Shown one piece after another: positions 1-16,289 of a stretch of DNA of 16,567 bases. Position numbers and translations under genes: made by a program. Location of the stretch: the NCBI GenBank assembly GCA_902384455.1, contig CABMCB010000042.1:1-16567 (forward strand), written 5' to 3'. Positions within the stretch are counted from its first letter, which is position 1. The number at the start of each line of letters is the position of its first letter. The notes beneath the pieces are model-generated. The model ran no database searches. It worked only from the letters and a program-made list of their open reading frames with translations, and was not told the origin of the DNA. Source of the DNA: an uncultured archaeon. Lineage in GTDB: Archaea > Altiarchaeota > Altiarchaeia > IMC4 > SCGC-AAA252-I15.

Positions 1-20
1 CGAAAAAGCACCATTCTGGG

Positions 21-509
21 TTGAGAACCATGACAAGGCTTGACACTTCCAAACTTAACGAAGGCGACTTAGTCTACATAAACATCCCCTGCTATGGTGA
101 TGAGGGTGAAGGTAGCGACGAAATCGCCAAAAATATCCTTTGCCGATACAAAAGGAGTTTAGGTCGCTATGAGGGCGCCTCCAACGTCAACGGCAGAGAA
201 GTCACACCGTCCTACTCAATCATGGTAGAAGAGGTTTTCCAAAGCGTAGACAGCCACGAATATCACTACCCTCAACATGTCCTCAGCGTCCGCTTAGCCA
301 CTTTCTGCGCAGTCGACCGTAAACCATGCGTAGATAACTGGCATACCTGTCGACGCAACGGTAACAAAAACAGAGCAAAGCAACACAACAAAGACGCCTG
401 CCCCAACTGTGTATTACCAAAAGAGATAGAGAAAAGGGGCGACAAATTGGACCTTGACCCCGTCCTAATTAACAGCCTAATCAAACACCGAATAGTACGA
501 GATGACTAA
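21..509 (+). CDS. Hypothetical protein with C-terminal Cys cluster (likely start ATG at 30)
   Basis: 162-aa ORF; CAVDRKPC..HTC..CPNC; G-rich SD-like site before ATG30. Confidence 0.7.
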   Translation: MRTMTRLDTSKLNEGDLVYINIPCYGDEGEGSDEIAKNILCRYKRSLGRYEGASNVNGREVTPSYSIMVEEVFQSVDSHEYHYPQHVLSVRLATFCAVDRKPCVDNWHTCRRNGNKNRAKQHNKDACPNCVLPKEIEKRGDKLDLDPVLINSLIKHRIVRDD

Positions 510-512
510 GCA

Positions 513-767
513 ATGCCAAAACACAGAGAAATACCCCAGCCTCAAAAGAAAATCTGCCCCCAAGACGGCGCACAGTACGAAGATTTCTGCATGGCTTACG
601 GATGCGAAAACCAAGACGGGTCAGGCGGATGCAAAGCCGTCCAGCCACGCGAATGTATCAACTCAACCGAGCATAAATGCAACAAGACCAAAATGCCCTG
701 CAAAATCTGGTGTGACGGCAAATGCGCAAAGTGCCCAATTTCAGCCAACAAGGAGCACCCACAATGA
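513..767 (+). CDS. Small Cys-rich (10 Cys) putative metal-binding protein
   Basis: 84 aa; starts 3 nt after the previous stop; ATGA overlap with the next gene. Confidence 0.7.
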   Translation: MPKHREIPQPQKKICPQDGAQYEDFCMAYGCENQDGSGGCKAVQPRECINSTEHKCNKTKMPCKIWCDGKCAKCPISANKEHPQ

Positions 768-1180
768 AAGGCATAAAGCTTCCCTGCATGCTTGGCGCTA
801 ACCGTTTCCATACAATGGGCGGCGTCCACGTTGAATGCTTGGGTTGCCTTATAACAAGACAGTGCCCGCCAGCAATCCTTAACGATTTCAAGCTGGATGA
901 CGAAACCCTCACTTTCTTTTACGCTCACATCGTAGAAGGCAAATGTGTTGAATGCGGACAAAAATTCCCATACAAAGGCTGTCCAGATGGTCTATGCCCT
1001 AAATGCGGCAAAGAATGCCACGAAAGGGTAATGGATAACGAAGACGGCGGAGAATGGGATACATGTGACTACAATTGCCCCTACGGACCCAAAGACGACG
1101 AAATAGATTATGAAAAACTGGAAAAAGACTATCCCCCACCATCAGATGAAGAAATAAAAAAAGCCCTTTTGGAGCAATAA
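764..1180 (+). CDS. Zn-finger protein (CVECG, CPKCG) with acidic tail
   Basis: ATG764 overlaps the upstream TGA (ATGA) and follows AGGAG at 751-755; 138 aa, 12 Cys. Confidence 0.75.
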   Translation: MKGIKLPCMLGANRFHTMGGVHVECLGCLITRQCPPAILNDFKLDDETLTFFYAHIVEGKCVECGQKFPYKGCPDGLCPKCGKECHERVMDNEDGGEWDTCDYNCPYGPKDDEIDYEKLEKDYPPPSDEEIKKALLEQ

Positions 1181-1182
1181 AC

Positions 1183-1665
1183 ATGCCAAGTTTCTATGAC
1201 GAATGTTTCTGTACTTTCACAGAAAAAAGACCTGCCGGCACCCGAATGAATTACATAGGGAACGGCATCTTCAAGTGCCCAACATGCGGCGCAACCCACG
1301 ACCACCACGACATCATATTCAGAATGCGCCTACGCTTTGAGAAGAAAAACGGCTACACGCACATCGCAATACACAAACCATACGATAGCCGCTTGCGCAA
1401 AATCGACACCGACCGCTATGAAGACAAAGACGACATGTGTCACTGCCACGGAAGAGAACCACATCGACACACGCTACTACACTCAATCAAAGATGACATG
1501 GACAGCGGCGAACGCATCGAATGTATGGACTACATGCCAACAAAAGACCACCCACTTGGAGACTTTGATTGTGATGTCATGTACTCTTGGGAAGACGGCG
1601 AAACAGACTGTGGCACTGAATGGGACTTAGACTTCAAAATAATCGCAGAGACAAGGGTGAATTAA
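1183..1665 (+). CDS. Zn-ribbon protein, paralog A
   Basis: ECFC..MNYIGNGIFKCPTCG..IFRMRLRF; motifs shared with the next ORF. Confidence 0.85.
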   Translation: MPSFYDECFCTFTEKRPAGTRMNYIGNGIFKCPTCGATHDHHDIIFRMRLRFEKKNGYTHIAIHKPYDSRLRKIDTDRYEDKDDMCHCHGREPHRHTLLHSIKDDMDSGERIECMDYMPTKDHPLGDFDCDVMYSWEDGETDCGTEWDLDFKIIAETRVN

Positions 1666-2154
1666 ATGAGCGAAGCCCAACTAAAAGTAATCAATCCCAT
1701 GTACTGCGAATGCCAAGTCGAATACGGACCCCGCGGACCCAAAGGCAAACAGATAAAAATGGATTATGAAGGCAACGGCGTTTTCAAGTGCCCCAAGTGC
1801 GGACACAAAGAAGACGATCACGGCGGAATCTTTAGGATGTACCTGATATTCGGAGAAAACGAAGAGGAAGAATTGTACACCGTCAAGCTGATGGACCCAA
1901 TAATCGATAGCCGCCTCAACGAGAAGAAAGACCCTGCTCAACCATACGAGAAAATGACATGCACAATGCGGGAAGTCATCGAAGGAAGCTTGGAAGATTT
2001 CGCTGACGACTTTGAGAGTCATGAAGAGGGCATATTTGAAGTAGACTTACGATATGCGACTTCATGGGATTCTGAAGAGGGCGACGGCGATGTCGAAATC
2101 GAAATCGTAGCTGAAAGAAAGCTCGATAAAATCCCCGAGGTAAAAGCCTCATAA
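1666..2154 (+). CDS. Zn-ribbon acidic protein, paralog B
   Basis: YCEC..MDYEGNGVFKCPKCG..IFRMYLIF; GGTGA SD upstream; abuts the previous stop. Confidence 0.85.
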   Translation: MSEAQLKVINPMYCECQVEYGPRGPKGKQIKMDYEGNGVFKCPKCGHKEDDHGGIFRMYLIFGENEEEELYTVKLMDPIIDSRLNEKKDPAQPYEKMTCTMREVIEGSLEDFADDFESHEEGIFEVDLRYATSWDSEEGDGDVEIEIVAERKLDKIPEVKAS

Positions 2155-2161
2155 TTTTTTT
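2155..2161 (+). terminator. Oligo-T (T7) archaeal-type terminator
   Basis: T7 run immediately after TAA 2152-2154. Confidence 0.45.
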
Positions 2162-2173
2162 GGGTGTTTTAAA

Positions 2174-2572
2174 ATGCAGACACAACCACAAAAACAAAGA
2201 TACGCTTGCAAATTCTCAGTCACTTGCATACGAAGAATTTGGATTTCACCCGACGACCGCAATAGCTGTACAAGAGACCCAGCGGAATGCCCATGGTCTC
2301 TGCACGAAAAAGTCAAAAACAACGAAATCTCCAAACAGGAAGCTTTAGCAATCATCGAAAAACTCAAAGAAGCCATACGAAAAAGAACCAAAGAAGAGCT
2401 AGAAAACGTTTGCAACAAAGCGGACGAGCTTGAAGCTGAAGAGAAAAAAGGCAAAAACGTCGACGCAGAAACCCAGAAGCTGGAAGAGCAGGCAAAGAAA
2501 TGGCACTATGACACACTCAACGGTAGCGACGATTACAAGCAATTAGAAGCACTTGAAAAGGAGCTTGCTTAA
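2174..2572 (+). CDS. Hypothetical protein, N-terminal 4-Cys motif plus charged coiled-coil
   Basis: 132 aa; E/K-rich helical C-terminal half. Confidence 0.75.
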   Translation: MQTQPQKQRYACKFSVTCIRRIWISPDDRNSCTRDPAECPWSLHEKVKNNEISKQEALAIIEKLKEAIRKRTKEELENVCNKADELEAEEKKGKNVDAETQKLEEQAKKWHYDTLNGSDDYKQLEALEKELA

Positions 2573-2574
2573 TC

Positions 2575-3327
2575 ATGGTACTCTTATCATTCTCTCTTGA
2601 GACCAAACGTGGTCCCGCCTACAAACTAATTCAGGACGGCACAAAAGCACAAACCTGCCGATTACCCCGAGACAGTCGACCAAAAGGTCTCCAAGACGCA
2701 CAACTCTACTGGAAAAGCAGAATCCCACTTTCCCAGAAACCAATCCATCAAATAGCCGATGGCTTAATCGACAAAATAGACTACGACACCAAATACGGGT
2801 CCTTCATGAACGACAACAAATTTGCATACTTAGACGGCTTTATCGACGCTGAAGAGCTAAGATTCTGGTTCAACCAAACCCACGAATGCAGTGAAGCAAC
2901 AGTTTTTGACGTTATCCATTGGGCACTCTACCACCCCTTGTACAGGTGCCCGATATGCGATTACACATCGGCAGTCACAAACATCCATCGTCAGTGCCAA
3001 CGCGCCATGTACCCGACAGGTGAAGAAGTCGCCTATTACACCACCGCGGACACCAAGATTATCCAGACACAACTACTCAAGATAGGCAACGAATCCAAGT
3101 CAAGAACGCTAATTAAAAAATACAAAAACTTCATGCCAGCAATGATGTGGGGCGGCACCGTATTCTCCAACGACCTTGTAGAAAGACGCTCAATTCCTGA
3201 GTGGGCAATCAAAAGCTTAGAGAAAGTCTTTGGCATCGATGTCCAACTGATACAAAAAAGCCCCGGATACATCAACGCACATCTACGAAACAACATTTTA
3301 GGAGGCAACAACGACGTTAGAAGTTGA
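2575..3327 (+). CDS. ASCH (PUA-like) domain protein fused to a Zn finger and an unknown C-terminal domain
   Basis: LLSFS..IQDGTKAQTCR matches the ASCH GxKxxTxR motif; FAYLDGF..ELRFWF ASCH tail; CPICDY..CQRAM. Confidence 0.75.
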   Translation: MVLLSFSLETKRGPAYKLIQDGTKAQTCRLPRDSRPKGLQDAQLYWKSRIPLSQKPIHQIADGLIDKIDYDTKYGSFMNDNKFAYLDGFIDAEELRFWFNQTHECSEATVFDVIHWALYHPLYRCPICDYTSAVTNIHRQCQRAMYPTGEEVAYYTTADTKIIQTQLLKIGNESKSRTLIKKYKNFMPAMMWGGTVFSNDLVERRSIPEWAIKSLEKVFGIDVQLIQKSPGYINAHLRNNILGGNNDVRS

Positions 3328-3379
3328 GCAAATACCTAATGAAACATTCGAAGAATTTCACGTAAAATACATTGAAAAA

Positions 3380-3652
3380 ATGATTTCAAAAGGCAAACCC
3401 CCACTAATCATCGCAGGCTCAATAAGCCACTTCCCTGACGACATCATCAGCACATGCCCAGACTGCGGCGGACCCATGGTTATGCGACCAAAAATCGCGG
3501 CTATCGTTAAGAAATATCACCTGAAAGCCAACTGTTTCACCTGTAAAGACCCCAAAGAAGTAGCAGTCGCTACAAAACAACTAAAGTGGATAATAAGAGC
3601 CGAACTCAGCAAAGAACAAAAGAAGAGCCAGCCTAAACTATCAAAAAGGTGA
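3380..3652 (+). CDS. Zn-ribbon protein (CPDCG..CFTC); frame open upstream to ACG at 3311
   Basis: Four-Cys ribbon; GTGA overlap with the next gene; GGAGG at 3301-3305 precedes ACG3311. Confidence 0.75.
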   Translation: MISKGKPPLIIAGSISHFPDDIISTCPDCGGPMVMRPKIAAIVKKYHLKANCFTCKDPKEVAVATKQLKWIIRAELSKEQKKSQPKLSKR

Positions 3653-4443
3653 CCAATAACCCGATGCCACAACAGTCTTACGAATTCAAAGGCAACAACT
3701 CAGTCATGAACTGCACCTACCTACAACGCAATTTCCGCGTGCCTATTTACAATTGGGATGCACTCAGCGTCGACCAATGGGCATCAATCGCCATGGCAAT
3801 CAGCAAAGCACTATACCACAACAAATTCACACTTGCCGCCACCAAAGACCACAAACTCTGGAAGGATGGCAGACCCGGCGACGAAGCACTCCAATTCGCA
3901 TTAATGCTGACTTCAGACAGAATGTTCCGCAAATCAGTCAGAGAATTCAACGCACAAGCAGAAAACATGAAGTACGGTCCATGGTTGAAAGCTATGGAAC
4001 AAGGCGATACAGCCGATTTCTGGTACCATATGTCTCAGCTTGGGCAGTTCATTTACAACTGCGTAAAGTTTCTGCGAGACACAGGGTATCTACTCATTTA
4101 CGGCGACAAAGTCACTCGGATACTTCGACCCTATTGGTGCCCACCGAGCGAATGGGCAATCAACAGAGACACCGCAAAAGCAATCATCGATGTCGTGGCA
4201 AAGCACTATGAAAGAACCCGCAAATACCCAACACTAAAAATAATTGCCAAGGAGCTAGATATTCCAAGATATACACTTATTGCGTCAGGCTTCACGAGAG
4301 ACGTTATTCACGAGACTTACAAAAACTATCGGAAGACAGCAGAGGTTAAAATTATAAAGCCAAAGAAAGAATACAAGCGTATGACTCAGGAAGAGACCAA
4401 TCAGGTTGCATTGAGAATAGCTCGCGGGATTTTCATTCCCTAA
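3649..4443 (+). CDS. Hypothetical protein with C-terminal HTH (possible start ATG 3664)
   Basis: 264 aa; YPTLKIIAKELDIPRYTL resembles an HTH; AGGTGA at 3647-3652. Confidence 0.75.
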   Translation: MTNNPMPQQSYEFKGNNSVMNCTYLQRNFRVPIYNWDALSVDQWASIAMAISKALYHNKFTLAATKDHKLWKDGRPGDEALQFALMLTSDRMFRKSVREFNAQAENMKYGPWLKAMEQGDTADFWYHMSQLGQFIYNCVKFLRDTGYLLIYGDKVTRILRPYWCPPSEWAINRDTAKAIIDVVAKHYERTRKYPTLKIIAKELDIPRYTLIASGFTRDVIHETYKNYRKTAEVKIIKPKKEYKRMTQEETNQVALRIARGIFIP

Positions 4444-4445
4444 GC

Positions 4446-4451
4446 TTTTTT
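4446..4451 (+). terminator. Oligo-T terminator
   Basis: T6 two nt after the stop. Confidence 0.35.
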
Positions 4452-4467
4452 CTATGGGTGAGGACAA

Positions 4468-5103
4468 ATGAGCGAAGACAAAGACATCAACAGAATCACG
4501 GACCCGAAAACAATCTTACGCGAGACCCGCAAAGCAGTTCAGCCGTATCTCCGAACCGTACAGCAACATAGCCGCGCCATAAAGCCACGCATCGAAATCA
4601 ACAGAAAATGGATAGACTACTACAAAAACATCGAAAAAATCCGCCCGCTCAAAAAAACTGAGCTAAAGAAGCTGGCGGACAGACAAGCCGCTTTAGACAC
4701 CGCGAAAGCGCGTCTTGAGATTTACAGAAACGCCGGTAGATACGCACGCACACACAAGACTGAAGACCTCATTAAACTTCGGCAAGCACAGTCAAAGTAC
4801 TATGAGGCAAGAGTACAGACAATGCCACCTGAAGAGCAAGCCAAAGAAAAAGAACGCATCGCCCCCGAGAAAAGCCAATACGATGCACTGGAAGACATCA
4901 AACAAGACATAGCTGAGAAATGCAAAAGTCTCAAAGGCGCTCGCTCTCCAACACGTTACTACGTCAGCACATCTCAAAGATACTTAGAAATACGCACCAT
5001 CTCAAAAGAGCTACAGCAAAACTTCAGAACAGCATATGAAATCGGTCACCCAGAAAAGTTCCCTGACGCATTATCAAATTACCGCGCTACAAACAGACTT
5101 TAG
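4468..5103 (+). CDS. Basic, all-helical hypothetical protein (possible nucleic-acid binder)
   Basis: 211 aa, K/R-rich; strong SD GGTGAGG at 4457-4463. Confidence 0.8.
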   Translation: MSEDKDINRITDPKTILRETRKAVQPYLRTVQQHSRAIKPRIEINRKWIDYYKNIEKIRPLKKTELKKLADRQAALDTAKARLEIYRNAGRYARTHKTEDLIKLRQAQSKYYEARVQTMPPEEQAKEKERIAPEKSQYDALEDIKQDIAEKCKSLKGARSPTRYYVSTSQRYLEIRTISKELQQNFRTAYEIGHPEKFPDALSNYRATNRL

Positions 5104-5115
5104 GAGAGAGGAAAA

Positions 5116-6084
5116 ATGGACATTAAACTATTCCATGACTTGAGTCCCCAAGAGTTAGGCTCTAATTATTTCAAGGGTATTGATGGGTTCTTTATGAGTC
5201 CCATCTGGTGGTTACTCAAACCAAAAGCATATGACTTCGTCACAAATATTTGGCAAAAAGGCGGCATCAAGAAAGCCTACAACATACCCGACGACGTACT
5301 GTACATTCAAGGGGCAGACAGAATCTTAGAGCGCCCAAAAGACGTCAAAGAAGGCGAACCATATCAGATGTTTATTCGCCCAACAATCTCAGCGCTCAAA
5401 GAGGCAGTTTGCTTAAACCCCGACATCATACAATTGCTTGATGTACCTTTAGACGACAACGACACCGAAAAGAAGATAGTGGAAAAAATCGCCATCAACC
5501 ACGATATTGTTGAACGAAGCGCCAAATGGTTAATTGAGAACAAGTATCGCAGTAGCGACCGCTACAAAAATGGCATTCACAAGTTCTCTAAATTCATGCT
5601 CTTAGGCGTCTGCCATGGAGACCTACCAGACATCTATGCGGAAGAAGCCAAGTTCATGAAAGACCACTGTGAAATCATTGGCATACCAATCGCTGGACTA
5701 CTCAGCCGAGTGAAAGGTCTGGACATGCGCCAGCGATATGACTACGTTTTCCAAGTAGTCGGGAAAGTTCTCGACGAAGTAGGCAACACACGACCACTGC
5801 AAATGATGGGCTACGGCTTGAGCAAAATTACAGAGCTTTCACGCATTGTTGGCTTAGCAAAGAAATACGACGCAACCATCTGGTTTGAATCCAGCACTAT
5901 TATTCGAAGCTCCGTGCATGCCCGAAAACTGCTAAGCATCAACCCGCTCACAGATGACATCGACTACGTTAACATTGCAAGGGTAGAAGGCGCAGACGAC
6001 ATGTCACCCCAAGAAATCTTTGTAGAAAACAACCAAACGCTAAAGGGTATAATAACCCAGACGCTTAAGCATGCGTCATTATAG
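5116..6084 (+). CDS. Divergent TGT/DpdA-like (guanine transglycosylase fold) TIM-barrel protein
   Basis: Collinear TGT motifs: GGIKK, PDIIQLLDVP, LLGVCHG, IGIPIAGL, RPLQMMGYG, WFESST; DSGGF motif and Zn site absent. Confidence 0.75.
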   Translation: MDIKLFHDLSPQELGSNYFKGIDGFFMSPIWWLLKPKAYDFVTNIWQKGGIKKAYNIPDDVLYIQGADRILERPKDVKEGEPYQMFIRPTISALKEAVCLNPDIIQLLDVPLDDNDTEKKIVEKIAINHDIVERSAKWLIENKYRSSDRYKNGIHKFSKFMLLGVCHGDLPDIYAEEAKFMKDHCEIIGIPIAGLLSRVKGLDMRQRYDYVFQVVGKVLDEVGNTRPLQMMGYGLSKITELSRIVGLAKKYDATIWFESSTIIRSSVHARKLLSINPLTDDIDYVNIARVEGADDMSPQEIFVENNQTLKGIITQTLKHASL

Positions 6085-6756: not shown

Positions 6757-7134
6757 ATGTGGATTTGCATTGAATCATACAAGGTCTACGCATATTATCC
6801 GGGCTTGCTACTCACCGACGAAGATATGCACCGAAGCTTTATGCATCGGCTGACCTTGAGGGGCATCAAAAGAATGCCAATTGGAACTATCCGAGGGAAT
6901 ACAAGCAGTGGATTGTTCTGTTTGGTTTTCATGAAAGTTGAGGATGATGTCGCCAAGCAATTCACCACGCTCATGATAAAAGTACATGGAAAGCATGGCG
7001 ATTATTGGCGCCCCTATTTTGAGTATAAAAAAGAGCTTGCCGAAAGGGAAGCTGAAGAAAACAAAGAGATTCTTAGGGAACTCCCATGGTTTAGCGATAC
7101 TTTACTATTAGCCATAGGGACAAGACCGTTATGA
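6757..7134 (+). CDS. Hypothetical protein
   Basis: 125-aa ORF; 3' end overlaps the convergent gene by 44 nt. Confidence 0.55.
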   Translation: MWICIESYKVYAYYPGLLLTDEDMHRSFMHRLTLRGIKRMPIGTIRGNTSSGLFCLVFMKVEDDVAKQFTTLMIKVHGKHGDYWRPYFEYKKELAEREAEENKEILRELPWFSDTLLLAIGTRPL

Positions 7135-7714
7135 GTACGCCCATGACGACGGCGAACAGCATTGTTGCAGGGTTCAGCAAGAAGGCTTCTAACATTGCGG
7201 CGACTGCTACGAAGGCACCGGCATAGAGAAAAAGTGTTCCTGAATCAACAATGGTCTCGCTTAATGAGACAGGTTTCTTGAATAGTTTTAGAGCAACATA
7301 TTTCGGGAAAAGTAAGCCTCCCGCTATGCCGAATACTAGAGAGAGTGCTTCCAGTACGCCGAAAGACATCAGGCTTATTGCAAGGTTCGCTGGGGAAACG
7401 GCGCTCGCTACCGCGCCAAAGGAAGCCCCGACGCTGTAAATCATTACGGATGGCGGGAAGTAGTTTATGCCGAATACCGGGAAGACAAACCAACCGACCC
7501 AACCCATTGCGGCAATCATGCCATTGTTTTGGGCAATCATTTGAAAGTTGCCGGTTATGTCGGTAACATCGATTTGCCGGTTTCGTGCGTTTTCAACGAT
7601 TGCCTGACCATAAGGAGATACGAGACCGATTGCGAAGCCGGCAAAGAAGAGCATCAAGGTAATTACTAAAACGTCTAAGTGTTTTTTGAAGAGGGTACAG
7701 GGGGGCTGAATCAT
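7091..7714 (-). CDS. SpoIIM/DUF95-like integral membrane protein
   Basis: IAQNN, SFGVLE and AAMLEAF correspond to the family motifs IFxNN, PHGxxE and AAxxE; about 5-6 TM segments; GGTGA SD. Confidence 0.7.
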   Translation of the reverse strand: MIQPPCTLFKKHLDVLVITLMLFFAGFAIGLVSPYGQAIVENARNRQIDVTDITGNFQMIAQNNGMIAAMGWVGWFVFPVFGINYFPPSVMIYSVGASFGAVASAVSPANLAISLMSFGVLEALSLVFGIAGGLLFPKYVALKLFKKPVSLSETIVDSGTLFLYAGAFVAVAAMLEAFLLNPATMLFAVVMGVLITVLSLWLIVKYR

Positions 7715-8127: not shown

Positions 8128-8583
8128 TTATCGCTTACCTTTGAACAGTAGTATGGCTAACATTGCAATGGCGACGATTGTTACGATTATGGCTTCAGGG
8201 TTTGTTTGTATCCATTCTGAGGACCCGCCAGCATAGTATGCGTTGAGGCTTGCAGTGTGGTCGAGCATTGGTGTCAAGACGAACATGTTGCTGTAGTCCA
8301 TGGCAATTCCAGCCAGTAACCCCAAGAACGGGATTAAGCCAAGCATGATGCCCATGAACGGGTATTTTTGCAGTGGCATAGCGCCTGTTTTAATGATTGC
8401 AAAGACAATGACGACGAGCGGGAAGCAAATGATGAGTCCAGTTAGCAGGTGCATCGTTGAAAGTATCGCTAATCCTACGATAGAGAGTATGATGGCGACA
8501 ACACCGATGCCAAGGGCAATTATCGGGTTATCCATCAGGAACCCTATGAATCCAGACCGGGCTACGTTTTTTGCGATTTCCAT
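8128..8583 (-). CDS. Multi-pass membrane protein (about 4 TM, basic tail KGKR); candidate envelope/matrix protein
   Basis: ATG8583 is 2 nt after the upstream stop and has a GAGGT SD; 151 aa. Confidence 0.8.
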   Translation of the reverse strand: MEIAKNVARSGFIGFLMDNPIIALGIGVVAIILSIVGLAILSTMHLLTGLIICFPLVVIVFAIIKTGAMPLQKYPFMGIMLGLIPFLGLLAGIAMDYSNMFVLTPMLDHTASLNAYYAGGSSEWIQTNPEAIIVTIVAIAMLAILLFKGKR

Positions 8584-8585
8584 TT

Positions 8586-9848
8586 TTAATGACCTCGTTT
8601 CTTGTAGGCGTAGTAGACGCCGATTGATAGGATGGAGACACCGACTACAATGATGAGTAACCAGAGGATTGTACTCCATGGAATAACTGTTGTGACAGGT
8701 GGTTGACTCTTTGGTACGCCGGGGTTGCTTGGCTCTGCGGGGATTTCAATGTTAAGGTTTTGTTGCTCTTCTGGGGGTAGCTCGTAGTTGGGAATCTTGG
8801 GTACTGTCCAGCCTTTTGGTGTTTGGAATGCTAGGTCAACTCTGAACCATTGGTCGACGACGGGTGCAGTGCCATCGCCGTATTTTTCATGTGCCCAGCT
8901 AAAGTAGTTAGGTCCAGCTTTTGAGGTATCGAAAACTAATTGTACGCCTAAGTTTGCGATGTTGACTTGCCACCATGCGTTTTGAACTGCAAAGTGGTTA
9001 AACCAATATTGCTGTGTCGGCGTTAGGAGAGGTTGTCCGCTTTGGTATTTTGGTGCCCAGCATTGTTGTTGGAGTGTTGCGTCTGTGTAGAGCGAAACTG
9101 ATGTACCTTTGGAGTTTGGTAGGATTTGTGCGCCGGTTCCAGCGGTGTAACCTGCCATTTTGTAGTCAGAGAGCCACATGCCCATGATTCCTAAGTAATC
9201 AGGGTTAAGGGAGTATGCTTGGTCTTGTCCGAGTGTTGGAGCGTTCATGCTTAGGAGAATCTTTGCGTTTGTGAGATAGTTCTTGTTGAAGTCTTGAATG
9301 GCGATGTTTGTGGCTTGTTTGACTAGGTCGTCATAGCTAGGGGTTCCGGGTGGGACTAAAGTGTCAATGCGAGAATCTTCGACGTTTATGTTGGCTGAGC
9401 CAGACCATTGTGTTTCTAGCTTAAAGCCATAGCCGTATGTTTGGATTGAGACGTTTTGGTACTGTGTTTCAGTGTCCGTATCTTTGACGACAAAATTGGG
9501 CGATTGGATGGTTGTCTCATATTGCGGAGAAGCTAAGTCGGTTACTTGCATGCTAACTTGAAGGGTTACATGGAGTCTCAGGTGGACATAACGTTGTTGT
9601 CCAAAGACGTTACTCCATTTTGATTCAGCTACTGCGGAAGTGTAGTCAAGAGTTGTGATAGTGCCGTATGCGCTGTTGACGGTGACAGACTTGACATCAG
9701 GTGCATTTTCCGTGAAGGATTGAATAGTGATGCCGGGTATGCCATATCCAGAATAGAATGCGCCTTGTTGGCTGGCAAGTAGCACAGTGGCAACAAGGGC
9801 TATGGTGACGACGATTAAAATGTTTCGTTTTCGGGGCGTTAACTGCAT
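8586..9848 (-). CDS. Surface/spike-like protein: N-terminal signal, beta-rich ectodomain, Pro-rich stalk, C-terminal TM plus KKRGH
   Basis: 420 aa; MQLTPRKRNILIVVTIALVATVLLA; VIPWSTILWLLIIVVGVSILSIGVYYAYKKRGH; TAATG overlap with the protease gene; GGTGA SD. Confidence 0.85.
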   Translation of the reverse strand: MQLTPRKRNILIVVTIALVATVLLASQQGAFYSGYGIPGITIQSFTENAPDVKSVTVNSAYGTITTLDYTSAVAESKWSNVFGQQRYVHLRLHVTLQVSMQVTDLASPQYETTIQSPNFVVKDTDTETQYQNVSIQTYGYGFKLETQWSGSANINVEDSRIDTLVPPGTPSYDDLVKQATNIAIQDFNKNYLTNAKILLSMNAPTLGQDQAYSLNPDYLGIMGMWLSDYKMAGYTAGTGAQILPNSKGTSVSLYTDATLQQQCWAPKYQSGQPLLTPTQQYWFNHFAVQNAWWQVNIANLGVQLVFDTSKAGPNYFSWAHEKYGDGTAPVVDQWFRVDLAFQTPKGWTVPKIPNYELPPEEQQNLNIEIPAEPSNPGVPKSQPPVTTVIPWSTILWLLIIVVGVSILSIGVYYAYKKRGH

Positions 9849-10549
9849 TAGACTCTCACCTGATATTTAGATTTACTTAGCGCATATCCGCTTATAAAGA
9901 CTATACAAAAAATTATTACGTATAGCCAGACGTTCATGTAGCCGAAGGCTAAGTAATCATAAGCAAAGTGGGCAACTATCAATCCTGTGAAACAGTTGAA
10001 GACGTAAATCATTACGCTGAAGAGAACACCCACCACTATCGCGTTTATCCAATCGCTGGGGTTCCAGAACAGGTGCATCGCGGCGAATCCGATACCACTG
10101 GCGCCAATAGCCACTTTTGGCGAGCCAAATCCCACCGCAAACAGGAAGTAGATTGCGATACGGAGAAGTTCTTCGCATGCCGTCCCGATGAAGATAATAC
10201 CGGGTGTTGGTGCGGCGGCTGATGAAGAGTAAAAGCCAGTTCTCAAAACAGTCAATATAATGGGAAGACCCATAATGAGAGAGGGCGCGGCGGCTTCCTG
10301 AAGGAAGTTTCCTATTTTCAGAGCACCAAAATCGTAGCTATCTGTACGGAACATCAGCAAAAGCATGATTACGGTGAGGATAGCACCACCTATGCCATAG
10401 AGAAGATGAATGTCTGTGATGTGTGTTAAGTCAGTGTAAGGAGCAAACTTGTCGTACCTCTTGTAAGCTAGAAATACGATGACAAACATGACGACGAGAT
10501 ATTCCCATTCGACGTGAACCTTATAGCCAGCCATATGTTTACCGCTCAC
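9848..10549 (-). CDS. CPBP (type II CAAX/Rce1/Abi-like) intramembrane glutamic protease (possible start ATG 10534)
   Basis: EELLR, FAAMH and HFAYD motifs in order within a polytopic membrane protein. Confidence 0.8.
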   Translation of the reverse strand: MSGKHMAGYKVHVEWEYLVVMFVIVFLAYKRYDKFAPYTDLTHITDIHLLYGIGGAILTVIMLLLMFRTDSYDFGALKIGNFLQEAAAPSLIMGLPIILTVLRTGFYSSSAAAPTPGIIFIGTACEELLRIAIYFLFAVGFGSPKVAIGASGIGFAAMHLFWNPSDWINAIVVGVLFSVMIYVFNCFTGLIVAHFAYDYLAFGYMNVWLYVIIFCIVFISGYALSKSKYQVRV

Positions 10550-10595
10550 TCAAGTTATTTTTTGGAAAGAGGGGGTAGAAGGAATGTAGCGGTTG

Positions 10596-12356
10596 CTACT
10601 TCTTTCGTCTTGTTGCCACAATTGCGGCTAAGACTGCACCGAGAGCTAAGACGCCAATTAGACCGTAGATGTAGACATCAGGTAGCAGGTAGAACGGTGT
10701 GTTGGTGTAGGGGTTGATGGCTTGACCGTTTTGTTGTGGTTGACTGTTGACGCCGGTGTCGATTACGTCGTTGCTGTTTGTGGCGATTGTTGCGTAGAAG
10801 TTGCCGTCGTTTTCTACTGTGAAGTCAACGAGTTTGATTTGCGTGCCAGCGTTGAATGTTGAGTGATATTGACCGTCGAGTAGCATTGCTGTGCCGTATC
10901 CGTTGCTGATTGGAACGTTGATGCTTTCTTTTGCAGAGGTTAGCGTTATGGCACCGCTTGGGAATGAACCGTCTGATGCGTTGACGTTGAAGGTCCAGAA
11001 GAATCGGCGACTGATTGTGAGTGTTTGTGATGCGCTGTCGCTTACTGAGAAGGTCTTGGATGCAGAGTATGTTTCTGTGCCGACTTTGACTGTTGCAGTT
11101 AGTGTTATGGGGAAGTCTTTGTCGCGTTCATCGAAAGTGAATTCGTGGGTGTATGTTCCTTCAGGTGCTGAGATGCCGGTTAGTAGTTGTGGAGCGGTGC
11201 CTACGAAGTTGTAGGGAGTTGTTTCGGTTAGTGTTGCTGGGAGTGAGTGTCCTTTTTGGTCGACTATGTTGTAGATGACTGAGTCAGACATTGAGTGATA
11301 GACAGGTGCCGGTGTTGGAGTTGCAGGGTCTTGTGTTGGAGCTTGTGTTGGCGCGGCTGTCGGTGCGGCGGTAGGTTCAGTGTTGCCGTTGTCTGGTGGT
11401 GGTGTTGGGTTGTCAACTGGCGGGTGCCATGCAGGCGGAGGGGTTGGTGTTGCCATTCCCGGAGGCATGTCGAATAGATAGGTCTTTGCTTGGTCAGCAT
11501 TTAAAGTGACAGAATCGCTTCGTGTAACACCACCGACTGTTACGCTGATTTGGTAGGTGTAGCCACCCGGTAATTGCAGTGCGGCAAGACCATTTGCGTC
11601 AGTATAAATTGGTTGTGCGCTGGGGTAGTTGTCGAAGGTAACTTTGGCATTTTGGATTGTTGGACCACCAGTGTAGCGAGCATAGATTTTGAGGTCGTAA
11701 ACAGTTAACGAATATTGGATGTTCAATGTGGCTTGACCGTTCAGCCAAGCACGTTGACCCGTCATTTTCTGTTGTGAATTGTAACCCGAGTCAGGTTGTA
11801 CAACGAATGTTACGACTTTGTCACCCTTCAGGTGGTTGTTAATTGTACTGAGTCCCGCGCTGTACGAGCTTGGAAAACTAAGAGTGCCAGAAGAACCCGA
11901 GCCGTAAACGTGAGACGAAGTGAACCCAATACCCGGATAAGGTTTGTTACTCCAAGTTACGCCATTTTGAGACCAACTATTATCGTCGGTCATTGCACAG
12001 GTATAATATGCCTGCCCGGTAGACCCGGTAAGAGGCACATTAAGAGTGGCGCTAGTGACAGTAGCACCCGCGGGTAACCATGAGAGGTCAAATTTGTAGT
12101 AACACCAGATGTCTGATGTTGTAGCGGTCAAAAGGTTCCAATCAATCTGTTGACCTGCAATGGCTTGTCCACCATAGTTGTTATTCGAGTATTTGTTGTT
12201 CTCGACATACGCGACGGAACTCGAAGTGAAATTGTGACTTAGACCCAATGTAGCAAAGAAGCCTCCATTGAATCCAATTAAAACTGTAACGGTGATAATG
12301 ACCACTGCGGCAATACCTATGTACTTTTTCTTGCTTGACATATTTCGGGTGCACAC
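10596..12356 (-). CDS. Surface adhesin-like protein: signal, DNRLRE/CBM96-like domain, Ig/carboxypeptidase-regulatory-like domains, P/T linker, C-terminal TM plus RRKK (likely start ATG 12341)
   Basis: YYKFDLSWLPAGATVTSATLNV..WSQNGVTWSNKP; IQNAKVTF..TDANG..YQISVT; YGLIGVLALGAVLAAIVATRRKK. Confidence 0.85.
   Translation of the reverse strand: MCTRNMSSKKKYIGIAAVVIITVTVLIGFNGGFFATLGLSHNFTSSSVAYVENNKYSNNNYGGQAIAGQQIDWNLLTATTSDIWCYYKFDLSWLPAGATVTSATLNVPLTGSTGQAYYTCAMTDDNSWSQNGVTWSNKPYPGIGFTSSHVYGSGSSGTLSFPSSYSAGLSTINNHLKGDKVVTFVVQPDSGYNSQQKMTGQRAWLNGQATLNIQYSLTVYDLKIYARYTGGPTIQNAKVTFDNYPSAQPIYTDANGLAALQLPGGYTYQISVTVGGVTRSDSVTLNADQAKTYLFDMPPGMATPTPPPAWHPPVDNPTPPPDNGNTEPTAAPTAAPTQAPTQDPATPTPAPVYHSMSDSVIYNIVDQKGHSLPATLTETTPYNFVGTAPQLLTGISAPEGTYTHEFTFDERDKDFPITLTATVKVGTETYSASKTFSVSDSASQTLTISRRFFWTFNVNASDGSFPSGAITLTSAKESINVPISNGYGTAMLLDGQYHSTFNAGTQIKLVDFTVENDGNFYATIATNSNDVIDTGVNSQPQQNGQAINPYTNTPFYLLPDVYIYGLIGVLALGAVLAAIVATRRKK
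11305..11463 (-). repeat. Coding Pro/Thr-rich low-complexity linker with degenerate 12-nt repeats
   Basis: PTPPP..PTAAPTAAPTQAPTQDPATPTPAP. Confidence 0.8.
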
Positions 12357-12384
12357 CTTTGTTTTGGCGAAAGCAGGCAGAGGG

Positions 12385-12390
12385 AAAAAA
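12385..12390 (-). terminator. Oligo-T terminator after the 92-aa membrane protein gene
   Basis: A6 on + (T6 on -) within a pyrimidine-rich tract. Confidence 0.4.
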
Positions 12391-12427
12391 GGGTTAAGTA
12401 ATAGCGATGCGGTCAGTCGCTACTACT

Positions 12428-12706
12428 TCAATTCAGCTTTAGTTTTGATAGCCATATTGCAATCGGAACGATTACAGACCCTACAATCGCAAATACGAAG
12501 TAGGGTATCAGTGCGGTCAGCGTGAAGATGAACGTTGTGTCGCTTGTGAAAGCGATGATGAAGTCGATGAGTAGCGACAGTAGTGCGCTTATGAGGACAG
12601 CGATGACGGTGAAGAGTAGCGCATCTCGGTACTCTTTACCGTTTACGAGAACTTTGACCAGAGTGATGACTAAAGCTATGACTATTGGTAGCCATATTGT
12701 CATCAT
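12428..12706 (-). CDS. Very hydrophobic 92-aa membrane protein (about 3 TM)
   Basis: GGAG SD directly after the TAA at 12722-12724. Confidence 0.8.
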   Translation of the reverse strand: MMTIWLPIVIALVITLVKVLVNGKEYRDALLFTVIAVLISALLSLLIDFIIAFTSDTTFIFTLTALIPYFVFAIVGSVIVPIAIWLSKLKLN

Positions 12707-12721
12707 TGCGGTCTAGTCTCC

Positions 12722-13681
12722 TTACTCTTCGGTGATTGCGACTGTTATTGCACTGCCGATGAGTGTGTCTGGTGACCAGAAGCGTAGGTTAGTTCTCATG
12801 ATGCCAGAGTCAACGAAGAGCTTTGCTTGCAGTGAGCCTGCGTCAGTTACGCCGTTTGCTTGGATGTCGACGACGATTACGATTTGTCCGTTGTCTGATG
12901 CTGTTGCAACTACGCCGTTTGTGCCGGTGACTGCGATTTGTTAGCCAACTGGACCACTTGCAGATTCTGTGTTTTGTGTGACTGTTGCGTCTTCGCCGTT
13001 TACTGTTGCGCTAACGACAGAGAGTCCGCTGATGGATGATGGCATGTAGAAGATGCTGTCTGGTAGGACTGCGTCTGGTGCACTGCCGGGGTCTGAGATG
13101 TTGATTGTGTAAGTCAGTTTCCATTCGCTTGCGTTTGCAACGTTGATTTCGGCTGTAGTGACAGGTGTGAGTGCGGCGCCAGTTTCGTCAGCGATTGCTT
13201 TGATGGTTGGAGTGTCAGCATCGCCAGTTGAGTCAGCTAGAGTTGAGACGGATAGTGTGCCGGGTGTTGCCCAAACGGTTTTGCCGTCGTCATTTGTTCC
13301 GGGGATGTTTACTGTGAAGGTTTTTGGTAGGAATGCACTGTTTGTGCTGTAGACGAGGCAGACATAGCTTCCAGCGTCTAGCTGAGCTTGCCATGCGCCT
13401 GCGGTTGCGCTGTATGTTGCTTGGTCGGTTGGAGCGTCTTTGAAAGTCTTTGTACCAACGGGGTCTGTGCCAAGTGGGAAGAATTGAACCTTTGCGTTGT
13501 CTGTGACAAGCGAAGAGGTTGCAATGTTGTTAACTTTCAGGTTAACTGAAAGTCCCGTGTCATACTTGTAGACAGTAGTTGACCCGGTTGTTGGGGTTGC
13601 GTAGTAGTAGTTTGCGGCTAATGCCACAATTACGATTGCGATTAAAGCTATGACCACATATACGACTTTTTTGTTTGCCAT
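12722..13681 (-). CDS. Signal-anchored, T/A/S/V-rich putative major surface/virion protein of 319 codons with one in-frame TAA (12941-12943): readthrough, nonsense mutation or sequencing error
   Basis: After ..SGPVG* the same frame continues for 72 codons (QIAVTGTNGVVATASDNG..SAITVAITEE*) with the same composition, ending exactly at the SD of the next gene. Confidence 0.8.
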
Positions 13682-13722
13682 TTTTTCGAGCCTTCTTTCT
13701 GGCTACCTATTGCTTGGTTTTG

Positions 13723-13730
13723 TTTATAAA
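13723..13730 (-). promoter_or_regulatory. TATA box TTTATAAA for the structural operon
   Basis: Consensus archaeal TATA box about 40 nt upstream of ATG13681. Confidence 0.6.
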
Positions 13731-13795
13731 TTCATGCCCGTCTAATCAGCGAGCAAGGGCTTGAAACCTGTTAGAAGGGTATCTAACGCATGGTC

Positions 13796-14218
13796 TTACC
13801 ATGCTTTTTTGATTTCTCGGACCACTAAAATGGCGCCCGCCGCACATGCCGAGACAACAAGTGTGAGCGTTAGCAGGTTCCCAACAGGCAAAATTGCGAC
13901 TAGGGAAATAAGAAGGAAAATACAGAGAAAAGGCATCCATTGAATAATGGCACGTTCCAACTGACTTTTTAGCCCACGAGCAACACTTACGCGAACAATC
14001 TCTTTAACAACGTAGTTGCCAAAAGCATCTTTTTGGACCAAATAAGCGCCGATAAGACGGTCGCAGTGGTGAAGAACCGTGGGTTTAGTTAGCTTAAGCT
14101 CACCCGCAAGCTTTTCGAGAGCTAACCCGGTTGAGTTATGCTTCATGAGACATTCATAGACCCGTGAAGTCTCAGGAGTAAGTACTTTCAGTATCTTCTC
14201 ATCGTCTGCGTTTAGCAT
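13796..14218 (-). CDS. Membrane-tethered winged-HTH regulator (N-terminal wHTH plus 2 TM)
   Basis: TSRVYECLMKH..LEKLAGELKLTKPTVLHHCDRLIGAYLVQKDAFGNY; two C-terminal hydrophobic helices. Confidence 0.8.
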   Translation of the reverse strand: MLNADDEKILKVLTPETSRVYECLMKHNSTGLALEKLAGELKLTKPTVLHHCDRLIGAYLVQKDAFGNYVVKEIVRVSVARGLKSQLERAIIQWMPFLCIFLLISLVAILPVGNLLTLTLVVSACAAGAILVVREIKKAW

Positions 14219-14261
14219 ACATTCCCCTCAACCGTTAGGCTCGCCAGTTAGTGAAAAACAC

Positions 14262-14468
14262 TTAAACGGGCGACTGAACGCGCAATGCTTCATGTATTTT
14301 CTGGTAGACTTCAGGCTTTATGGTTACGAAGTTATTCTCAAGCTTCAGGTTGCCGTCTAGCCCCATAGTCGCATTGTAAACGTTACCGTCAGGTGTTTTG
14401 CAGACGAATTTCTTTGACCCATCTTCCGAGGTCCCGGTTTGTGTGCATTCTGTTTTCTTATCAAACAT
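14262..14468 (-). CDS. Small hypothetical protein
   Basis: 68 aa; AGGTGA SD and its own TATA box. Confidence 0.7.
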   Translation of the reverse strand: MFDKKTECTQTGTSEDGSKKFVCKTPDGNVYNATMGLDGNLKLENNFVTIKPEVYQKIHEALRVQSPV

Positions 14469-14484
14469 TTAACTATTCACCTAC

Positions 14485-14520
14485 GTCTTGTTTGCTCGGT
14501 TTAGCTATAAAAAATTTTTG
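14485..14520 (-). promoter_or_regulatory. BRE/TATA promoter, copy 1 of a shared motif
   Basis: CAAAAATTTTTTATA-N11-CAAACAAGAC on the - strand. Confidence 0.65.
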
Positions 14521-14534
14521 GATGAATTGATGGT

Positions 14535-14777
14535 CTACCGAATAGGTTTGCGCTTGAGAGCAAACATGCCGTTGTTGGTTACAACGGGAGACCAGAAATC
14601 TGCCGGATTGAACTGAAATTCGTCTGTGGCTCGCACATTGACAAATTCAAGGTCCATCTTTTCGTGGGAATCAGCGAGATTAAGAGTACAGGTTACACCT
14701 GAGAGGACAGGGACCCCGGAGTCTAATTCAGTTACGAATGTTTTGCAAGTCACTTCAGCTTTATGATGGTTTGACAT
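14535..14777 (-). CDS. Small beta-rich hypothetical protein
   Basis: AGGTG SD 6 nt before ATG14777; 80 aa. Confidence 0.7.
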   Translation of the reverse strand: MSNHHKAEVTCKTFVTELDSGVPVLSGVTCTLNLADSHEKMDLEFVNVRATDEFQFNPADFWSPVVTNNGMFALKRKPIR

Positions 14778-14814
14778 AGTGTGCACCTATAGGCGTTTGA
14801 CCTGCGTAAAAATG

Positions 14815-14846
14815 AAAAAAAAAGAAAAAGTTGAGGTTTTTCTTTT
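14815..14846 (-). terminator. A/T inverted repeat with long U-run; probable terminator
   Basis: AAAAGAAAAA(14820-14829)-gttgagg-TTTTTCTTTT(14837-14846), a perfect 10-bp inverted repeat. Confidence 0.55.
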
Positions 14847-14900
14847 GTTAACGTGACGTTTGTGGTGGAATTAAAGAGGGGGAAGGTGAGAGCGGCGTGT

Positions 14901-15101
14901 TTAGAGGTTTTCTCTCATGCACTGAGAGAACTCGGCACGGTTGCCTGCTTTGCCTTTGCAAGTCTGGACTGCTTTGCCAAACTTTTCGCGTTGGGCGACT
15001 GATTTGTCATCCATGGCTTTCTTGTTGGTTGGGGGACGGAATGCTAGTTTTCCTTTTGCTGTCACGTATGGTTTGAAGATTTTTATGACTGGAGTTGGCA
15101 T
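14901..15101 (-). CDS. Small basic protein; candidate nucleoprotein/DNA-binding protein
   Basis: 66 aa with 15 K/R versus 5 D/E; AAGGAG SD; flanked by non-coding gaps and terminators, so likely monocistronic. Confidence 0.75.
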   Translation of the reverse strand: MPTPVIKIFKPYVTAKGKLAFRPPTNKKAMDDKSVAQREKFGKAVQTCKGKAGNRAEFSQCMRENL

Positions 15102-15209
15102 GTTTTTTTTGCTCCTTGATTTGTTTTTTGGGTTTTCCCTTTGATAACAGAGTTAAGCGATTTACCTTTTAAGGCTTATTCAAGGATTTTTTATACATTG
15201 AAAAAAAGT

Positions 15210-15641
15210 TCATGCTGGAATCGTGGGAACGGCTTGTTTTGCCCCCGCGACTAGACTTTCAACGCAAGTCATCGAGGGGTTTTTGTGGCATGTTCGAACC
15301 TTATCGCAAATCAAAAGACTCGTAAATTCGCCGATGCATAAGCAAAGTGGCGGGCTTTGATTGAGCTTGTAAACACCCGGTACGAGCGAGTATTTGGAGA
15401 TGTTGGCACCGTTTTCCTTTGTAATGAAGGGGCGTTCTGCCAGTTTTTTCAGGTAGTAGAATACATGTTGTGGTGACAGTGTAGGAATGTCTCGGCTTCT
15501 TCGTTGCTTGTTGACTTCAGTTACAAGGTCCTTTAAGGGAACCTTTGCTTGCCCGCGGTGCTTGAGTTCTAGGAATGCGTTCAAAACTTCGTATTCAATC
15601 GGATTCATTGATTCTAGCAGTTCGGCAGTCATATTTATCAC
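15210..15641 (-). CDS. Winged-HTH transcription regulator with C-terminal Cys cluster (likely start ATG 15632)
   Basis: EYEVLNAF..LKDLVTEVN..LSPQHVFYYLKKLAERPFITK..KYSL; T7 run after the stop. Confidence 0.8.
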   Translation of the reverse strand: MINMTAELLESMNPIEYEVLNAFLELKHRGQAKVPLKDLVTEVNKQRRSRDIPTLSPQHVFYYLKKLAERPFITKENGANISKYSLVPGVYKLNQSPPLCLCIGEFTSLLICDKVRTCHKNPSMTCVESLVAGAKQAVPTIPA

Positions 15642-15642
15642 T

Positions 15643-15678
15643 GACTTGTTTGATGACTCTTAATATAAAAAACTTTTG
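15643..15678 (-). promoter_or_regulatory. BRE/TATA promoter, copy 2 of a shared motif
   Basis: CAAAAGTTTTTTATA-N11-CAAACAAGTC on the - strand. Confidence 0.65.
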
Positions 15679-15700
15679 AATGTACTTATAAAAAGGAGCG

Positions 15701-16285: not shown

Positions 16286-16289
16286 AGTC

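Follow-up and report, generated by a model that had tools for sequence, protein, structure and literature searches.

The closest described relatives of the protein considered here are the tRNA-guanine transglycosylases (TGTs) and DpdA, the preQ0 insertase of the bacterial Dpd system, which acts on DNA. For bacterial TGT, the available portion of PMC5699537 describes a purine pocket formed by Asp102, Ser103, Asp156, Gln203, and Gly230, with Asp280 as the nucleophile. For DpdA, the available portion of PMC10164549 assigns Asp95 as the general acid/base and Asp256 as the nucleophile (the D95A and D256A variants are inactive), has Phe99 and Leu236 sandwich the base and Asp130 and His181 read its Watson–Crick edge, and states that three active-site Asp residues are invariant across tRNA and DNA transglycosylases. 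The subject of this analysis is a gene at positions 5116–6084 of a 16,567-base stretch of uncultured archaeal DNA (the window), which is the entire contig C42 of its source bin (G000; 2.41 Mb, 103 contigs, 91.9% complete). Its product appears to be a small member of the TGT superfamily with an altered active site. Our interpretation, an analogy that we hold tentatively and at somewhat less than an even chance, is that this TGT-like protein is an active, minimal DpdA-like base-exchange enzyme acting on the DNA of the mobile element that carries its gene.

Positions 5116–6084, forward strand: TGT-superfamily barrel protein (family F2), ATG start, 322 residues, without a zinc motif or RNA-binding domains.

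A first-pass annotation made from the DNA alone had picked out this open reading frame (ORF) and six motifs within it, all of which are present: QGADR (residues 65–69), DIIQLLDVP (103–111, including Asp109), VCHG (165–168), PIAG (191–194), RPLQMMGYG (226–234), and WFESST (256–261, including Glu258). It had also proposed a TGT/DpdA-type barrel, which is borne out by structure prediction. The AlphaFold2 model, built from 26 sequences, has a pLDDT (predicted local distance difference test score) of 88.9 and a pTM (predicted template modeling score) of 0.88, with the barrel spanning residues 1–322. All 50 of the 50 Foldseek matches listed against the PDB are TGTs (best E 1.8e-10, TM about 0.63), and BFVD models of phage TGT/DpdA-like proteins are poorer matches (best E 5.1e-7). 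A VIA-align comparison against 48,161 representative chains, made independently of Foldseek, ranks four TGT-superfamily chains at the top: the archaeosine TGT (arcTGT) 1iq8 with Z 22.6 (root-mean-square deviation 3.2 Å, 266 residues aligned), DpdA 7ui4 with 21.4, bacterial TGT 3unt with 20.9, and QTRT2 6fv5 with 20.0. The fifth chain, five Z units lower, is an unrelated TIM barrel (Z 14.9). The single family match by sequence is to Pfam TGT (PF01702; E 4.5e-4, 19.8 bits, residues 98–234 on profile positions 123–237), and this Pfam family is matched at E ≤ 0.1 by 7 of 26 family members (best 1.5e-4; E-values only), with no competing family. A PHROGs search gave nothing relevant. The fold is thus resolved by structure, the sequence match being marginal and below every family threshold. 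The resemblance to TGT exceeds chance by Pfam, Foldseek, and VIA, and on the strength of the model the protein almost certainly has the TGT-superfamily fold.

The marginal sequence similarity also bears on a different possibility, that the barrel works outside nucleic-acid chemistry, with a small molecule, protein, or glycan as its substrate, perhaps together with the CBM96 module or in a Cap10-like attachment of a base to protein. Four conserved acids (Asp8, Asp103, Asp116, and Asp169) without an assignable TGT counterpart and the adjoining membrane/surface module would fit such an activity, as would the appearance of the Cap10–CdnD entry 9ntn among the VIA barrels. Cap10, from type IV CBASS, resembles the TGT-like protein in being a TGT-related barrel employed in a conflict system, away from tRNA metabolism. 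However, its Z of 14.7 is no better than that of unrelated barrels, so that the five-Z gap separates the four TGT-superfamily chains from all other barrels, Cap10 included, and neither a QueC-like Cap9 nor a cyclase is nearby. The positions of the base pocket are kept, the three proteins of the gene unit described below are basic, and in every locus the gene lies on the strand opposite to the surface module, co-oriented with genes for HerA and helix-turn-helix (HTH) proteins. We therefore regard a role outside nucleic-acid chemistry as quite unlikely and return to a TGT-type reaction.

The protein belongs to a family of its own. A word-indexed search of 5.8 billion proteins gave 27 relatives at 38–60% identity, HMMER run exhaustively on 1.84 billion cluster representatives gave nine matches, and a profile search gave 31 clusters in total, with names no more informative than "hypothetical" and no precomputed Pfam domain. 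Conservation was counted over 31 distinct sequences from two alignments, with identity down to 28%. Seven residues are invariant in all 31 (Asp8, Gly66, Asp68, Arg69, Asp109, Gln229, and Asn305), and four more are nearly so: Met231 and Ser260 (30/31 each), Asp169 (29/31), and Gly194 (27/31). Position 258 is Glu in 30 sequences and Asp in one, position 167 is His in 28 and Gln in three, and position 65 varies (His 19, Gln 5, Ala 5, Tyr 2). The first-pass annotation had left room for a single decaying copy whose close homologs keep DSG and FDS. Neither motif occurs in any of the 31 sequences; instead, close and distant homologs alike carry G-[SA]-D-R and [FILVM]-E-[SG]-S, so the altered motifs are family traits. 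Because these motifs are shared by all homologs and Asp68-Arg69, Asp109, Gln229, and Asn305 are invariant, decay of this copy is ruled out.

To place these residues in the TGT active site, we used hhalign alignments of the family to arcTGT, with arcTGT numbering checked by aligning a relative's arcTGT to 1iq8 (landmarks Asp95 in vDSGSF, Asp130 in FLDIP, Gln169, Gly196, Phe229, and Asp249 in LFDSAS). The two registers obtained are mutually consistent and fit both the Pfam range and the sequence of eight strands seen in the model; hhalign in global mode and with the C-terminal segment alone gave no usable alignment to arcTGT. The pairings listed for positions 65 to 231 follow this low-confidence register.

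Residue 65: pairs with arcTGT Asp95.
Gly66-Ala67-Asp68-Arg69, codons 5311–5322, forward strand: strand-3 loop, in place of the DSG(G/S) motif; Gly66, Asp68, and Arg69 in 31/31.
Asp68: pairs with arcTGT Ser98.
Arg69: pairs with arcTGT Phe99.
Asp109, codon 5440–5442, forward strand: in LD[VLI]P, 31/31, aligned with the base-binding Asp after strand 4 (Asp130 of arcTGT and DpdA, Asp156 of bacterial TGT) and within the Pfam-aligned stretch.
His167, codon 5614–5616, forward strand: His 28, Gln 3; pairs with Gln169 of arcTGT, Gln203 of bacterial TGT, and His181 of DpdA.
Cys185, codon 5668–5670, forward strand: start of strand 6 and GIPxAGL loop; +1 residue of the intein site in P0029 and P0043.
Ala193-Gly194: pairs with arcTGT Gly195-Gly196.
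Met231: pairs with Phe229 of arcTGT, Met260 of bacterial TGT, and Leu236 of DpdA.
Glu258, codon 5887–5889, forward strand: last residue of strand 8, the topological place of the TGT nucleophile Asp.

Three features of the mapped site stand out. The base-binding Asp after strand 4 is kept as Asp109 throughout the family and is paired in both hhalign alignments, as the first-pass annotation had supposed. The general acid/base Asp of the D-S-G motif after strand 3 is not kept at its position. Asp68 had been proposed for that position; the low-confidence alignments instead put the variable residue 65 there, and the invariant Asp68 lies three residues downstream. Finally, the nucleophile Asp at the end of strand 8 is replaced by Glu in 30 of 31 sequences, with a carboxylate in all 31; the pairing of Glu258 with Asp249 is topological only, being read from the barrel of the model. 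The exchange of DSGG/SF for QGADR and of the nucleophile for Glu258, both recognized in the first-pass annotation, thus extend across the family as G-[SA]-D-R and Glu. A Glu nucleophile reportedly has a precedent in the D264E mutant of Escherichia coli TGT, for which we found no paper.

Compared with arcTGT, the best structural match, the protein has the same eight-strand order, and the LD[IV]P base-binding Asp, the Gly of the strand-6 loop, and the hydrophobic residue after strand 7 line up. It shares only about 12% identity, however, and has 322 residues against about 580 (563–590 in the arcTGTs of related genomes). It also lacks the DSGS-F motif, the Asp nucleophile, for which it has Glu, the CxCxxC…H zinc site, and the C1, C2, and PUA domains. 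The absence of the zinc site, also part of the first-pass annotation, is confirmed: the C.C..C pattern is not found, the sole Cys residues are 99, 166, and 185, and the C-terminal part of the family has no conserved Cys/His cluster. Bacterial Tgt, such as that of Zymomonas mobilis, under which the 50 listed Foldseek rows fall, shares the Met after strand 7 (Met231 and Met260) and an L-M-G motif; it differs in its DSGGFQ motif, its Asp280 nucleophile, and its dimerizing zinc subdomain (PMC5699537, available portion), and in being a housekeeping gene.

In the low-confidence register, the positions of the guanine/7-deazaguanine pocket appear to be kept or conservatively replaced: Asp109, His/Gln167, Gly194, and Met231 match the pocket residues of TGT and DpdA. 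A retained pocket argues against the new base specificity suggested in the first-pass annotation, and a guanine-type base in a nucleic acid is a somewhat favored substrate. The same annotation had offered a catalytically dead binder or decoy of nucleic acid as an alternative. A non-catalytic subunit of this kind, binding nucleic acid or a partner protein, would account for the loss of both the DSG acid/base motif and the zinc site, and it has a precedent in QTRT2, an inactive TGT paralog with a TGT barrel and an altered active site that is the fourth-ranked VIA chain. QTRT2 lacks the active-site Asp and is paired with a catalytic paralog (PMC5699537, available portion), whereas the TGT-like family keeps a strand-8 carboxylate in every member, and no second TGT-like gene, catalytic or otherwise, was found in the window, in the related loci, or elsewhere in G000. 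At their catalytic ends, the barrel strands bear invariant polar residues, and two of the loops have been invaded by inteins. A non-catalytic role is thus very unlikely, and the protein is probably an active enzyme.

The inteins lie in two conserved loops. P0029 (746 residues) aligns to P0001 over residues 1–185 and 184–316, and the two segments are separated by a 426-residue insert with Cys as its first residue, His-Asn at its end, and Cys as the next residue after it; the insert matches LAGLIDADG above the Pfam cut-off and Hint weakly. An insert of this kind also interrupts P0043 at that position, before Cys185, where strand 6, which runs on into the GIPxAGL loop, begins. A second site is occupied in the 690-residue ORF of locus L023 (…SVIY | C…THN | CHGSDR…), in which a 372-residue insert with the same terminal signature directly precedes the G-S-D-R motif of strand 3 (C/I64-H-G-S-D-R). 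The L023 and P0029 inteins share 26% identity over 253 residues (E 6e-8). Inteins tend to occupy conserved functional sites of nucleic-acid enzymes, and given this preference the two sites support the functional importance of both loops. An intein was also seen in another gene of the element: the RadA/Rad51 ORF at L021:2963-5095 (reverse strand) encodes 710 residues including a LAGLIDADG intein, and the intein-free copy at L007:4060-4923 encodes 287. At least two genes of this element family thus harbor inteins.

The genomic context of the gene was compared, by tblastn with the window proteins, across 25 related loci, one from a GTDB genome labeled Candidatus Bathyarchaeota (G061) and 24 from metagenomes. 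Directly upstream in the window are three genes.

Positions 3380–3652, forward strand: F20, small protein with two CxxC pairs; upstream in 4/25 loci (tblastn).
Positions 3649–4443, forward strand: F3, 264 residues, basic (median isoelectric point (pI) 9.6), mostly helical, HTH-like C-terminal segment.
Positions 4468–5103, forward strand: F1, 211 residues, basic (median pI 9.7), Arg-rich and helical; 12 nucleotides upstream of the TGT-like gene.

F3, F1, and the TGT-like gene form a fixed three-gene unit. In the window, F3 and F1 are separated by 24 nucleotides, and F1 and the TGT-like gene by 12. F1 was found by tblastn in 21 of the 25 loci and in one more (L025) by a more sensitive look, and it precedes the TGT-like gene in all 22 loci that have upstream DNA; in the other three (L023, L024, and L027), the sequence extends no more than 12 bases upstream. 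Nineteen of the 25 loci contain F3, and each of the remaining six is cut off upstream. Both partners are well conserved, and with a median pI of 9.1 for the TGT-like family, most members of all three unit families are basic. F3 was modeled poorly (pLDDT 65.8), and Foldseek gave no match to this model at E ≤ 0.001; the Atlas gave no usable match for F1 or F3, and F1 has no relatives whose function is known. Complex predictions of F3, F1, and the TGT-like protein scored 0.79, 0.80, and 0.78, those with a partner swapped 0.00 and 0.00, and one with F3 replaced by an unrelated protein still 0.74, a pattern that by the rule of the tool counts neither for nor against binding.

The unit resides on a sporadic archaeal mobile element, as indicated by its scattered distribution, deviating GC content, lack of paralogs, and associated genes for Orc1/Cdc6, RadA, and HerA-type proteins. 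The family is found in one of 41 genomes around G000 (G000 itself) and in one of 81 around G061 (again only G061), and no paralogs of the window proteins occur elsewhere in G000. The GC fraction is 0.459 in the contig compared with 0.505 in the bin, and 0.39–0.44 in the related loci. The element family is also seen in bins of two lineages, the 80 relatives of G061 (G062–G141) being distinct from the 60 other genomes of the G000 phylum. Together, the two-lineage occurrence and the GC shift suggest either mis-binning or an element of wide host range. The rest of the 44.8-kb G061 contig encodes an Orc1/Cdc6-like protein, TnpB, a second HerA-like ATPase, and surface proteins, with no housekeeping gene among its ten largest ORFs.

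Among the systems compared, DpdA is the one that the TGT-like protein most likely works like. Both have a TGT-type barrel, a His at the position facing the Watson–Crick edge (His167 and His181), no tRNA-binding domains, and a location on mobile DNA, and DpdA of phage 9g also lacks two of the four zinc ligands (PMC5699537, available portion). The likeness has limits, as DpdA keeps all three Asp residues, requires the ParB-like ATPase DpdB, and in phages usually clusters with preQ0 genes, whereas the family here has no acid/base Asp at its position, has Glu at the nucleophile position, and is accompanied by two basic proteins unrelated to DpdB. If the target is a nucleic acid, DNA is a likelier substrate than RNA by a good margin. 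We propose that a guanine-type base would be flipped into the TGT-like pocket formed by Asp109, His/Gln167, Gly194, and Met231, and that the glycosidic bond would be broken through a covalent intermediate on the strand-8 carboxylate, Glu258. The invariant Asp68-Arg69 pair could take over the acid/base role, and perhaps the base stacking, of the lost DSG-aromatic motif, and a replacement base could then be installed, in the simplest case preQ0 or another 7-deazaguanine made by the host. As for phage and bacterial DpdA, the target would be the element's own DNA, which would be protected from host restriction, and F1 and F3 may substitute for DpdB by helping to bind or open the DNA. A bolder version of this proposal, in which the unit is a self-contained DNA base-replacement system with a Glu-linked intermediate, a relocated Asp-Arg pair, neither DpdB nor a linked preQ0 pathway, and maybe a base other than the known 7-deazaguanines, seems to us improbable.

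The covalent intermediate could also be resolved by water. In that case, the protein would be a hydrolytic nucleic-acid glycosylase that excises a (possibly modified) guanine-type base, directed against competing elements or host DNA marks. We know of no TGT-fold glycosylase, and uncontrolled abasic sites would damage the element itself. A changed second half-reaction would fit the loss of the acid/base Asp, the residue with which TGT and DpdA activate the incoming base (PMC10164549, available portion), and no base-supply genes are linked to the unit. Glycosylases do serve in phage–host conflicts according to the available portion of bioRxiv 10.1101/2025.10.29.685425; they are not stated there to be of TGT fold, and the term "TGT" occurs 0 times in that paper. 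Self-modification, moreover, would account for the fixed place of the gene in the replication/recombination-side module, next to two DNA-binding-like partners. A glycosylase is accordingly an unlikely description of the protein, and if the substrate is DNA, base exchange is probable rather than mere excision.

The supply of a replacement base and the choice between DNA and RNA both turn on the host. The first-pass annotation had seen no folE, queC, queD, or queE gene in the window, and Pfam likewise detects none in 20 of the 28 window ORFs treated as genes, no separate QueE search having been made. A six-frame search of G000 located QueC (C25:683-1321), QueD (C25:31991-32395), and two FolE genes (C25 and C32), all on contigs other than the window; because G000 encodes these proteins, such a host could supply preQ0. 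No canonical TGT was found in G000, although one scores above the Pfam cut-off in 39 of 41 related genomes and in 51 of the 61 genomes of the G000 phylum. These observations, together with the arcTGT catalytic domain being the closest structure (Z 22.6), would suit an RNA-acting enzyme, either a tRNA-guanine transglycosylase that alters host tRNA or a stand-in for arcTGT. Against this, the protein has no C1, C2, or PUA domain and lacks the zinc subdomain that mediates TGT dimerization (PMC5699537, available portion), and searches of 40 and 80 relatives of the two genomes did not find the family, a distribution unlike that of a gene for tRNA modification. G061 carries a canonical arcTGT (273.7 bits) alongside the TGT-like gene; the family as an arcTGT replacement is ruled out, as this genome has both. 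The lack of arcTGT in G000 probably reflects incomplete assembly or binning, given that 8% of the bin is missing and that the deviant GC of C42 makes its binning doubtful. We thus consider an RNA-acting role unlikely.

Several observations weigh against the preferred interpretation, a DpdA-like exchange on the element's DNA. By sequence, the protein does not reach the Pfam PF01702 gathering cut-off (26.3 bits against its 19.8), searches of the PDB by sequence and by profile gave no relevant match, and the family is matched neither by the TGT models of NCBIfam nor by DpdA or DpdB models in NCBIfam or PADLOC, the latter presumably including Dpd-system models. The alignment to arcTGT on which the active-site mapping depends is not significant (hhalign probability 0.6% with four arcTGTs and 2.4% with 31), so that the residue register, though concordant, is weak, and sequence profiles do not resolve the strand-8 segment, the pairing of Glu258 with Asp249 included. 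The acid/base Asp described as invariant in TGT and DpdA in the available portion of PMC10164549 is not at its position in this family. No preQ0 genes (QueE not having been searched for separately), DpdB-like ParB ATPase, or restriction genes linked to the TGT-like gene were found, and the best QueC match in G061 is weak (30.5 bits in a 522-residue frame). F1 and F3 gave no PADLOC or NCBIfam match and are without a recognizable fold, and the window's own TGT-like protein, with a pI of 6.2, is not basic. Finally, relatives of the element were found neither in IMG/VR (0 of 66 candidate stretches) nor in a phage collection or PLSDB.

We found no description of this family in the literature, nor any mention of DpdA in the ten papers listed for it with Bathyarchaeia or Bathyarchaeota; the main text of the paper on Bathyarchaeia viruses does not use the terms transglycosylase, DpdA, or archaeosine. 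A preprint on 7-deazapurine pathway mining used curated aTGT, bTGT, eTGT, and DpdA models at E 1e-5, according to its available portion. Given the weak scores reported here, we would expect such models to miss the TGT-like family. The family is small, unnamed, and carried on large mobile elements of uncultured archaea, and it breaks two of the three Asp-invariance rules and drops the zinc subdomain, yet is strictly conserved. If active, it would show how far a TGT active site can be rebuilt, with a Glu nucleophile, a shifted acid/base, and no zinc-mediated dimer, and would point to DNA (or RNA) modification in the mobile elements of uncultured archaea, whose epigenetic defenses and counter-defenses are almost unknown. 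Its two obligatory partners without a known fold would then be new handling factors. The TGT-like gene and its two partners may mark an undescribed DNA-modification system.

The remainder of the element was outlined by clustering the ORFs of the 15 longest of the 26 sources (the window and 14 loci of at least 9 kb). Families run in the order F11, F20, F3, F1, F2, and F13 on one strand and converge on F4, F5, F10, F7, F6, F8, F9, F14, F12, F15, F18, and F22 on the other; F20 is present in 5 of the 15 clustered sources, the window included. F11 is a HerA/FtsK-type ATPase, and in related loci F25 is a RadA/Rad51 recombinase and F23 a DUF5131 protein. The converging module consists mostly of proteins with one to three hydrophobic segments.

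Positions 7091–7714, reverse strand: F4, SpoIIM-like membrane protein whose gene opens the convergent membrane module; 21/25 loci.
Positions 8128–14218, reverse strand: conserved membrane/surface module comprising F7, F6 (420 residues), F8 (Rce1-like protease), F9 (CBM96), F14, F12, and F15 (HTH).

The element may be a virus, a conjugative plasmid, or of another kind. The window and 16 related stretches yielded no tRNA genes, and the window contains no terminal repeat, Rfam family, or spacer-like match to the rest of G000. On the 44.8-kb G061 contig, L062:2696-3712 (forward strand) is a TnpB/Cas12f-like gene with OrfB_IS605 and TNB domains. Two genes that are not in the window gave PADLOC matches: the HerA-type ATPase upstream of the unit at L021:5575-7041 (forward strand) matches mad8 (E 2.4e-11), and the DUF5131 protein at L021:1477-2181 (forward strand) matches two candidate-system models (E 1.5e-19 and 1e-18). 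Within the surface module, F6 (8586–9848, reverse strand; 11/25 loci) has a hydrophobic segment at each end of its 420 residues and a long Thr/Gln/Asn-rich middle, a layout like that of envelope or surface proteins that are anchored. There is a 94-nucleotide overlap between its called start and the downstream ORF at 8128–8679.

The ORFs between positions 3 and 3327 have no counterpart in the 25 related loci and thus constitute a variable part of the element. Two of them, at 1183–1665 and 1666–2154 (forward strand), encode paralogs of 160 and 162 residues (33% identity, E 1e-15) with a CPxC motif each, and a family of 22-nucleotide direct repeats at 1078, 1413, 1728, and 1794 lies within this block. 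The window shows a very strong strand bias in composition: the forward-strand genes (1–5500) have an AT skew reaching +0.36 together with a negative GC skew, both skews are reversed in the reverse-strand genes (8500–16500), and the switch follows gene orientation.

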